In this document: positions 14,408 to 52,896 of the stretch, piece after piece | Layout: every line of letters starts with the position of its first letter | How positions within the stretch are numbered: position 1 is the first letter of the stretch | IMG/VR virus record: IMGVR_UViG_3300021978_000001 | Location: 96,001-160,000 of that record | Direction: 5' to 3' (one strand) | DNA from: a virus | Taxonomy: Duplodnaviria > Caudoviricetes | Length of the DNA stretch: 64,000 nucleotides | Notes under the pieces: model-generated | What the model was told of the DNA's origin: nothing | Database searches by the model: none | The model's input: the letters and a program-made list of their open reading frames with translations, nothing else | Program-made: the position numbers and the translations under genes

Positions 14408-14730
14408 CTCCTAAGCCCCGCATGCGCGGGGAACCTGGTTTGTGCTATCTGGCACGGCGGGCCATCCCCGCATACGCGGGGAACACTCTCTCTTGTCGTC
14501 TCAGTCAACGCCAGGTGTGGGGCCATCCCCGCATACGCGGGGAACACTGCGTGTAGAGTGAGCCCCTCTCTTCCCAAACGGGACCATCCCCGCATGCGCG
14601 GGGAATACGCGAATCAAAATCGAGGTCAAGCCCTTCTTGGCGGACCATCCCCGCATGCGCGGGGAACACTGCGCTTCCTTGTCTTTCTCGTCCTTCGAGC
14701 GCGGACCATCCCCGCATGCGCGGGGAACAC
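14408..14730 (-). CRISPR. orphan type I-E-like mini-array: 5 full repeats plus 1 degenerate, four 33-nt spacers and one 23-nt spacer
   Basis: Repeat GTGTTCCCCGCGCATGCGGGGATGGTCC at 14459, 14520, 14581, 14642, 14703 (61-nt period); leader and TTGACA promoter at 14731-14840; no cas genes in window. Confidence 0.95.
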
Positions 14731-27485: not shown

Positions 27486-27514
27486 TGAATGTCGATGTGG
27501 TTGCATGCGAGGCG

Positions 27515-27542
27515 GGACCATCCCCTCATACGAGGGGAACAT
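27515..27542 (-). CRISPR. solitary I-E-like repeat with compensatory stem change
   Basis: ATGTTCCCCTCGTATGAGGGGATGGTCC (CCCCTC/GAGGGG stem). Confidence 0.8.
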
Positions 27543-27578
27543 ATTTCTCGCACCATTCGCAATGGAGACCGTTCTCAG

Positions 27579-27650
27579 TGGAGCTTGAGAGACTCGAACT
27601 CTCAATTCAACCTTGCAAAAGTCGTGTGATCCCAGTTTCACCAAAGCCCC
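27579..27650 (-). tRNA. tRNA-Ala(TGC)
   Basis: Cloverleaf, G3:U70. Confidence 0.9.
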
Positions 27651-30825: not shown

Positions 30826-30944
30826 GCTTACCTCGTCTGAAAAGTACCCTGCCGTAAGTTCGCTTCTCATGCGCCCTCGTCTTAAAGGCGCACAGAATAC
30901 CCCTCCCCAGAGGTAAAGTTTAGAATGATGAACCCGACAGGGTA

Positions 30945-31017
30945 TAGCGGGTGAGGGAATCGAACCCCCAACTGTAGGTCATGAGCCTACCGAGATATAC
31001 CGTTTCTCCAACCCGCA
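30945..31017 (-). tRNA. tRNA-Met(CAT), 1:72 mismatch (initiator-like)
   Basis: GTAGG-CTCATGA-CCTAC. Confidence 0.88.
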
Positions 31018-31051
31018 ACAAATGAGTGTGCTGTTCCTGTGCCCCGGCGCC

Positions 31052-31195
31052 GGACCATCCCCGCATACGCGGGGAACACGCTCCACAACACACTCGGGCG
31101 CCTGGGTATACCCACGACGCAGATCCGCTTGACGGTGGAGCGACAGGCGGAAGTGGTACGGCAAGGCGAACCATCCCCGCGCACGCGGGGAACAT
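31052..31195 (-). CRISPR. two I-E-like repeats (31052-31079, 31168-31195) separated by 88 nt, between tRNA-Ile and tRNA-Met
   Basis: Near-identical to the array repeat. Confidence 0.85.
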
Positions 31196-31235
31196 GGACC
31201 TCACGGATGCATCGACGCGAGATCTCACCATACCA

Positions 31236-31555: not shown

Positions 31556-31556
31556 G

Positions 31557-31630
31557 TAGGGCTGACAGGAGTCGAACCTGCGACCATCTCCGTGTAAGGA
31601 AGCTGCTCTGACCAACTGAGCTACAGCCCT
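31557..31630 (-). tRNA. tRNA-Val(TAC)
   Basis: Canonical cloverleaf. Confidence 0.9.
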
Positions 31631-31666
31631 GTGATGTGCTTGCTCGGATAAGGGAAGTGGCGAGCG

Positions 31667-31757
31667 GCGCCATCCCCGCATGCGCGGGGAACACTAAATC
31701 TGAACAAACACAAGCAGAGCGCCCGAGATGAACCATCCCAGCATATGCAGGGAAATC
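31667..31757 (-). CRISPR. repeat-spacer-repeat unit (31667-31694 and degenerate 31730-31757, 35-nt spacer) upstream of tRNA-Val
   Basis: GTGTTCCCCGCGCATGCGGGGATGGCGC plus a degenerate copy. Confidence 0.75.
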
Positions 31758-31839
31758 AACGTATGCCTTTCGCGCTCTGTGGTGAAAGGTAGCTGGGTAC
31801 CGTTGACTCTCCCGTAGGAGCGGCCCCTGCTTGCCTCTC

Positions 31840-52805: not shown

Positions 52806-52896
52806 AGAGCCGGGTGGGACTCGAACCCACGACATACCGCTTAAAAGGCGGATAGGACCATCCCCGCATGTGCGAGGAACAATAGCCCCACCCGGC
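52806..52896 (-). ncRNA. tRNA-Lys(TTT)-CRISPR repeat chimera
   Basis: Repeat TTGTTCCTCGCACATGCGGGGATGGTCC (52855-52882) in place of the D arm, followed by CCGC-CTTTTAA-GCGG, T arm and acceptor 3' strand. Confidence 0.75.

Follow-up and report, generated by a model that had tools for sequence, protein, structure and literature searches.

A solitary type I-E CRISPR repeat upstream of a phage tRNA-Met gene: an apparent recent graft into a native tRNA leader

The window analysed here, a 64,000-nt stretch of DNA, is taken from a phage record in IMG/VR that measures 437,490 bp and has terminal repeats; it spans bases 96001-160000 of this record. The phage codes for a type I-E set consisting of a Cas8e-Cas11 fusion, Cas5e, Cas6e, Cas7e and Cas3 (profile scores of 94 bits for PF08798, 170 for PF09344, 131 for PF09704, 55 for PF09481, 31 for PF09485 and 109 for PF18019). 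The cas genes contain no internal stops, and Cas1 was looked for in the phage genome and not found. The I-E repeat of this phage is 29 nt long and comprises a GC-rich hairpin of 6-7 bp with a 4-nt loop, followed by an 8-nt 3' part, ATGGTCCG, which becomes the 5' handle of the guide. Repeats of this family number about 70 in the genome and lie without exception on a single strand, with some ten arrays among them; the array period is 61 nt, and 37 of the 52 inter-repeat gaps measured genome-wide are 32 nt long (33 nt in another four). Variant spacers, sharing 17 identical bases and then diverging, are present in two arrays located outside the window (genome 25917-25948 and 28873-28904), which suggests repeated targeting of the same sequence while the target evolves.

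The phage has 33 tRNA genes, all on one strand, at 99.8-174.4 kb of the record, and all clear solitary repeats of the genome fall inside this tRNA region. Two of them lie between tRNA-Ile and tRNA-Met. The features relevant to this locus, and an array used for reference, are as follows (window coordinates):

14408..14730, minus strand: reference CRISPR array of five repeats and a degenerate terminal one, with 32-nt spacers
30944..31018, minus strand: tRNA-Met (CAU) as called by ARAGORN; the Rfam ends are 30945-31017
31019..31050, minus strand: putative 'spacer', which is the tRNA-Met 5' leader; 32 nt, or 33 nt if the tRNA starts at 31017
31051..31079, minus strand: repeat B, a solitary type I-E repeat, GTGTTCCCCGCGTATGCGGGGATGGTCCG, matching the array consensus at 28/29 positions
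31080..31166, minus strand: interval between repeats A and B, 87 nt of native intergenic RNA
31154..31235, minus strand: tRNA-like element hosting repeat A, with an acceptor-like stem UGGUAUGG/CCGUACCA; intact and repeat-free in the sister strains L033 and L034
31167..31195, minus strand: repeat A, a solitary I-E repeat, ATGTTCCCCGCGTGCGCGGGGATGGTTCG, with five mismatches and an intact hairpin

Read 5' to 3' on the minus strand, the order is tRNA-Ile (31309-31236), 40 nt, repeat A, 87 nt, repeat B, 32 nt and tRNA-Met. The repeat search pattern gave six matches and none in 100 shuffles, therefore the repeats are not due to chance. The repeat originally placed at 31052-31079 is real; taken as a 29-nt unit it occupies 31051-31079 and differs from the array repeats of the window by 0-1 mismatch. 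It carries the canonical 8-nt handle of the arrays and is a lone repeat copy in a viral genome, the same genome that provides the cognate Cas6e and Cascade genes. The distance of 34 nt to tRNA-Met given in the original prediction holds if the repeat is counted as 28 nt (33/34 nt), but with 29-nt repeats the gap is 32 nt (ARAGORN) or 33 nt (Rfam). It is indeed a gap of spacer length, although the array spacers, which had been put at 33 nt, come to 32 nt when measured between 29-nt repeats. The 'spacer' string quoted at that time is found in the sequence. No repeat follows on the downstream side, where tRNA-Met begins 32-33 nt on, so that the handle plus 32/33 nt stops exactly at the predicted 5' end of the tRNA. 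The perfect match of the leader is its own DNA, which has no PAM. tRNA-Met itself has a U1-U72 mismatch and a U-1 able to pair with A73, both conserved in L033, L034 and the more distant L028, and lacks the three G-C pairs of the bacterial initiator anticodon stem.

A consensus scan found no promoter belonging to the repeat B unit; the nearest conserved TTGACA...CATAAC is about 850 nt upstream. This promoter-like motif (TTGACA-17 nt-CATAAC, window 31956-31928, minus strand) comes after a terminator-like hairpin at 32006-31988, and no change of the TTGACA box is seen as far out as the distant sisters L028 and L032. As the second hexamer ends in C, the motif does not pass the consensus scan. The motif is the probable start of the operon holding the grafts.

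Close relatives of the phage were reached through a neighbouring 327-aa protein, from the cluster to which it belongs at 90% identity. They include L033 (a 22.7-kb Logan contig) and L034-L036 (three runs), while L028 and L032 are more distant. The interval from tRNA-Ile to tRNA-Met is homologous throughout in L033 and L034, and repeats A and B are both absent from L033 and L034-L036. The identity of individual segments to the strain studied here is as follows:

tRNA-Ile: 74/74 in L033, 70/74 in L034
block at repeat A: 12/54 in L033, 14/54 in L034
block at repeat B: 10/35 in L033, 10/35 in L034
leader (the 'spacer'): 30/32 in L033, 29/32 in L034
tRNA-Met: 74/75 in L033, 75/75 in L034

At site B both relatives carry an unrelated block of 30-31 nt between flanks which are 94-100% identical. 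The 32-nt sequence itself is retained at the same locus in these repeat-less strains, so the supposed spacer is the native tRNA-Met leader. Judging from the orthologous alleles, the 32 nt preceding tRNA-Met is an ordinary leader and not captured foreign DNA, and the earlier reading of it as a spacer was abandoned. The possibility that the native blocks of L033 and L034 are decayed repeats was ruled out by shuffle tests: p was 0.33-0.94 in seven of the eight comparisons with the repeat, and the remaining value of 0.04 is uncorrected for eight tests, hence there is no significant likeness.

Contigs of four other studies have the two one-base insertions of L033 at 31081/31082. As these insertions go with the repeat-less allele of L033, the contigs presumably carry this allele as well. 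One of them is almost identical to our strain in the remaining flanks, and the X6 mismatch and gap counts fit a replaced block alone. The repeat B graft is thus seen in this strain only, with four other metagenomic populations likely to have the repeat-less allele; the grafted allele comes from a single assembly.

Predicted folds suggest what has been replaced. In L033 the leader forms a long stem, with GAGUGUGUUG (corresponding to 31095-31086 here) as one strand, CAGCACACUC from within the leader as the other, and a small hairpin as its cap. This native cap shows one compensatory change between L033 (ACCC/GGGT) and L034 (ACTC/GAGT). The outer stem (31024-31033 / 31086-31095) is present in both predicted folds, and in our strain its cap is the CRISPR hairpin. 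The direction of change at site B was judged from the majority allele and from covariation in the native hairpin, since neither of the distant sisters, L028 and L032, can be aligned at this site to serve as an outgroup. From these comparisons we infer that repeat B is young and strain-specific, and that it took the place of a small native hairpin.

The upstream repeat was also proposed initially, at 31168-31195, with an 88-nt insert between the two. The repeat is there (31167-31195) and the spacing is 87 nt, but the 'insert' is native sequence: it is identical to L033 at 80 of 81 alignable positions, has a 28-nt deletion relative to L033 and L034, and only its last six bases (TGGAGC, 31080-31085) are non-native. 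A stem between GCTCCAC (31135-31141) and GTGGAGC (31080-31086) had been suggested for this insert. Both halves are present, yet their pairing does not appear in the minimum-free-energy fold and the 3' half is strain-specific junction sequence, so the stem was discarded as a meaningful element.

According to the predicted folds, repeat A takes the place of the anticodon-like arm and the T-arm of a tRNA-like cloverleaf, whose acceptor stem survives. The counterpart of this element in L033 (L033:4707-4815, corresponding to window 31154-31235) folds as a cloverleaf directly after tRNA-Ile. It has a long hairpin at the D-arm position and a 4-nt 'anticodon' loop. ARAGORN makes no tRNA call for L033:4707-4815, and Rfam gives only a sub-threshold match to the tRNA-like mascRNA family.

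Repeats A and B are not isolated cases: in this phage and its close relatives, the tRNA/Y-RNA operon has at least 12 grafts, the sites of which are strain-specific. This strain and L034 together have 12 independent solitary copies (13 if L032 is included), every one of them in the sense orientation relative to the operon (p ~2e-4 for a random strand). Wherever an ungrafted allele is available, the alteration is confined to the upstream side and the native sequence 3' of the repeat is intact. A repeat occupies the place of an inner arm, between outer helices that are retained, in tRNA-Trp and tRNA-Gly(gcc) of this strain, as well as in tRNA-Gly(tcc) and two Y-RNA modules of L034. The L034 grafts involve a different repeat variant and different sites. 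In the window, the further repeats with defined positions are:

31666..31694, minus strand: repeat 35 nt upstream of tRNA-Val (31556-31630), with an altered handle, ATGGCGCC
31729..31757, minus strand: degenerate repeat in a former tRNA-Trp, filling the part from the anticodon to the T-loop; the acceptor stem is kept
52806-52895, minus strand: tRNA-Lys(UUU)-like gene, the D-arm region of which holds an I-E repeat (52854-52882)

tRNA-Trp is intact in L033, L034, L028 and L032; no tRNA-Trp is present in the genome-wide tRNA list of this phage, and window 31700-31775 (minus strand) is a hybrid. The tRNA-Lys(UUU) hybrid keeps its acceptor stem, anticodon arm (loop CTTTTAA) and T-arm, has a weak Rfam tRNA match (30.5 bits), and no other tRNA-Lys(UUU) was found in the genome. 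Its layout is like that of the other grafts, with no ungrafted allele to compare. Two more solitary repeats are located inside a former tRNA-Gly(gcc) and about 102 nt before an amber-suppressor tRNA. Another is found 35 nt after tRNA-Ala(tgc), and native sequence picks up exactly past it. This tRNA-Ala(tgc) (window 27514-27650, minus strand) is strongly diverged from the copy of the sister strains; about 110 nt downstream of it are exchanged for the repeat-bearing block, which shows a compensatory stem variant (CCCCTC/GAGGGG). At L034:13050-13530, an ORF-carrying insertion of about 480 nt lies between the conserved tRNA-Val leader and tRNA-Val, with a short duplication of the leader end.

Counted to the 5' end of the next tRNA, the grafts lie at distances of 0, 32, 35, 47 and 102 nt. 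In the case of tRNA-Val, the 35 nt following the repeat is again the native leader. With distances of 0, 35, 47 and 102 nt elsewhere, neither the spacing nor the coupling to RNase P can be regarded as a conserved design, and this part of the original prediction does not hold. Altogether, its geometry and the presence of the phage's own Cas6e stood, while the identity of the spacer and the insert and a conserved RNase P coupling did not.

The sequence context of the graft sites is PAM-like. The native triplets which precede the retained downstream sequence are AAC, GAG, AGC, AAT, TAG, AAT, AAG, GAG and AAG. A canonical I-E PAM is present in four of these nine ungrafted alleles, a proportion to be compared with a background of 0.08 (p ~0.002), the PAM set being that of E. 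coli I-E (AAG, GAG, ATG, AGG), which may differ from the one used by this system. In eight of the nine triplets A occupies position -2 (p 6e-5 in a post hoc test), with two of the nine located in T-loops, where A is conserved anyway. At site B the ungrafted allele has TAG, which is outside the four canonical E. coli PAMs. A guide from repeat B would match L033 at 30/32 positions, with mismatches at 9 and 32, and would find TAG at the PAM position in L033 and CCG, belonging to the repeat, in its own genome. Guide pairing is disrupted in all ungrafted alleles with a canonical PAM and mostly perfect in the non-canonical ones (one-sided Fisher p ~0.04). We do not lean on this pattern: at the tRNA-Trp site it is the grafted allele that acquired the mismatch, so the pattern is accounted for equally well by decay of older grafts and by escape.

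No match was found between the array spacers of this phage and the sister tRNA loci, or between 27 spacers from the cas loci of sister strains and this genome. Similarly, 120 bacterial loci with the same repeat contain no spacer matching the tRNA cluster of this genome. As no present-day spacer matches the cluster, no donor array unit was found. The arrangement itself was also searched for elsewhere. INPHARED phages gave nothing with the region as a query, and chance-level matches only with the repeat plus leader. In IMG/VR, 13 contigs have the repeat core; none of them is related and none has tRNAs in the stretch examined. The pattern of a repeat, 80-105 nt and a T-loop had no matches in IMG/VR, where a related-locus search with three proteins returned no close relatives. 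Among JGI metagenome contigs there were no matches to a repeat followed after 30-45 nt by the tRNA-Met start, nor to the leader plus the tRNA-Met start.

We consider it moderately probable that the unit results from a recent repeat graft by capture at a protospacer-like site, with release of a handle-plus-leader RNA by Cas6e and RNase P. According to this account, the phage's own I-E repeat together with about six foreign bases would have taken the place of the apical hairpin of a conserved stem-loop upstream of tRNA-Met. The repeat could have been captured from a CRISPR array by recombination or repair of the protospacer-like site against a matching array unit. Capture at such a site would explain both the PAM-side boundary and the upstream-only replacement, and it would destroy the PAM. 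As the unit would be transcribed together with the tRNAs, cleavage by Cas6e is expected at the 3' base of the hairpin and cleavage by RNase P at the tRNA 5' end, presumably giving a 40-41-nt RNA made up of the AUGGUCCG handle and the leader. Production of this RNA is biochemically plausible, and it would have the same format as a minimal I-E guide. Rival strains would offer the one good target, their ungrafted allele, as the phage's own copy has the repeat where the PAM would be. Guide function of the repeat B unit is put forward here as a hypothesis, and the RNA may be either a Cascade-loaded guide or a by-product. In the predicted structure, the 3' part of the leader pairs with a segment upstream of the repeat, which could hinder Cascade loading.

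A bolder possibility, which we regard as unlikely, is that the graft acts as a guide gene against the rivals' ungrafted allele and spreads like a natural CRISPR homing drive. The guide released by Cas6e and RNase P would direct Cascade-Cas3 to co-infecting relatives having a PAM before the same leader, while the carrier would be protected because the repeat sits at the former PAM. The attacked genome would acquire the repeat when repaired with the carrier as template, and grafts would thus spread through the conserved tRNA operon. If this is true, the unit would be the first natural guide RNA with a 3' end made by tRNA processing.

The grafts could alternatively be neutral scars or selfish copy errors, generated by hairpin-to-hairpin template switching or gene conversion from array repeats and devoid of function, with any Cas6e cutting incidental or mildly harmful. 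Every graft replaces a native hairpin or a tRNA arm, as expected from such an origin, and tRNA-Trp, tRNA-Gly(gcc) and tRNA-Lys(UUU) were destroyed in the process. Several grafts are decaying (5-8 mismatches), their occurrence is strain-specific, and at two sites the repeat end, GGTTCG, shares microhomology with the T-loop sequence GGTTCGA. On the other hand, accidental copying leaves the uniformly sense orientation, the enrichment at canonical PAM triplets and the maintenance of graft hairpins through compensatory variants without explanation, so we find this possibility rather unlikely. The orientation, together with a gap which equals the modal spacer length exactly and the canonical handle of repeat B, would agree with an evolved design, namely a gene dedicated to guide production, with RNase P standing in for the downstream repeat and the 32-33-nt spacing being selected. 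Hairpin-less guides do work: I-E Cascade recognises its targets with a guide lacking the 3' handle and without Cas6e (PMC4499155), and in type I-B, guides released by RNase P and tRNase Z are active, the 3' handle being dispensable (PMC4326828, Maier et al. 2015). A dedicated design nevertheless seems quite improbable given that the 32 nt is native leader, the position of the graft was set by a pre-existing hairpin, the unit is found in one strain only, and the handle of the tRNA-Val unit is altered. Moreover, among about five distances one of 32 nt would occur by chance in some 10-20% of cases.

It is very doubtful that the grafts are decoys of the Racr/SRU type, in which repeat hairpins placed in tRNA-type scaffolds or leaders would sequester the Cas6e or Cas7 of an I-E system belonging to a host or a rival. 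Solitary viral repeats are known to inhibit I-E, I-F, I-C and V-A systems (PMC10651486), the same repeat family is widespread in bacteria, and several grafts keep the tRNA acceptor stem around the hairpin, which makes a good scaffold for a stable small RNA. However, the repeat is identical to the array repeats of a phage which has the cognate Cascade and Cas3 aboard, so that a decoy would poison the phage's own system. Besides, the unit is placed inside an operon and has no promoter of its own in the consensus scan, tRNA is not mentioned anywhere in the report on viral repeats (PMC10651486), and the PAM-like context of the sites would be left unexplained. The account preferred here, capture at a protospacer-like site, covers this context.

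Solitary CRISPR repeats in viruses are known, and their origin is, to our knowledge, mostly a matter of conjecture. The strains compared here are natural ones, and at the same loci some have a graft and others the ungrafted allele. Such allele pairs show directly that repeats were dropped into conserved structured-RNA genes, always in the sense orientation and with the downstream native sequence kept, and that the graft boundaries coincide with PAM-like triplets more often than expected. This provides a testable system for studying how solitary repeats arise and whether a phage with its own Cascade can use its own genome as a source of guides against sibling strains. The case also calls for caution, as a spacer-length gap beside a tRNA can simply be the tRNA leader.

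Several known systems resemble the repeat B unit in part. CreA/CreR-type units of cas loci (10.1101/2023.03.03.530964) and their phage versions (10.1101/2024.10.29.618823) likewise consist of a single, often degenerate repeat and a guide-like segment. They make a crRNA-like RNA without a full array, and the guides of these units show partial pairing to cas or toxin gene promoters (10.1101/2023.03.03.530964, 10.1101/2024.10.29.618823), whereas a search of the phage genome with the leader gave no match besides the leader itself at E < 0.05. The original prediction referred to the Racr or solitary repeat units of phages and plasmids (Camara-Wilpert et al. 2023, PMC10651486), with which the unit shares a lone repeat outside an array and an intact hairpin that a Cas6 enzyme should bind and cleave. 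The anti-CRISPR analogy fits poorly because the repeat is the phage's own, with the matching Cascade and Cas3 in the phage. Racr units differ from repeat B, which belongs to the phage's own complete type I-E interference system, is located inside a tRNA operon, has no promoter of its own in the consensus scan, and is followed by native sequence of guide length.

The virus-borne mini-arrays (Medvedeva et al. 2019, PMC6858448) would be comparable in aiming at siblings, though not in their build; they are viral repeat-plus-guide units matching related viruses, while the carrier's own locus is altered and thereby escapes targeting. Mini-array targets lie close to the mini-arrays, and the viruses involved share a habitat (PMC6858448). 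These mini-arrays have a leader, two flanking repeats and acquired spacers and use host Cas proteins (PMC6858448), whereas the unit described here has one repeat, a 'spacer' that is orthologous native sequence, and the Cas proteins of the phage itself. Self-protection would also differ from that of mini-arrays (PMC6858448), coming from the repeat at the PAM position. The release of the guide, in turn, would resemble that of icrRNAs with t-elements (PMC4326828) and of tRNA-gRNA arrays, where the guide abuts a tRNA or tRNA-like structure and RNase P sets one end. As with icrRNA (PMC4326828), the repeat B unit would give a guide without a 3' handle. The icrRNAs are laboratory constructs with both ends made by tRNA enzymes (PMC4326828), while the repeat B unit is natural, and its 5' end would be made by Cas6e and only its 3' end by RNase P.
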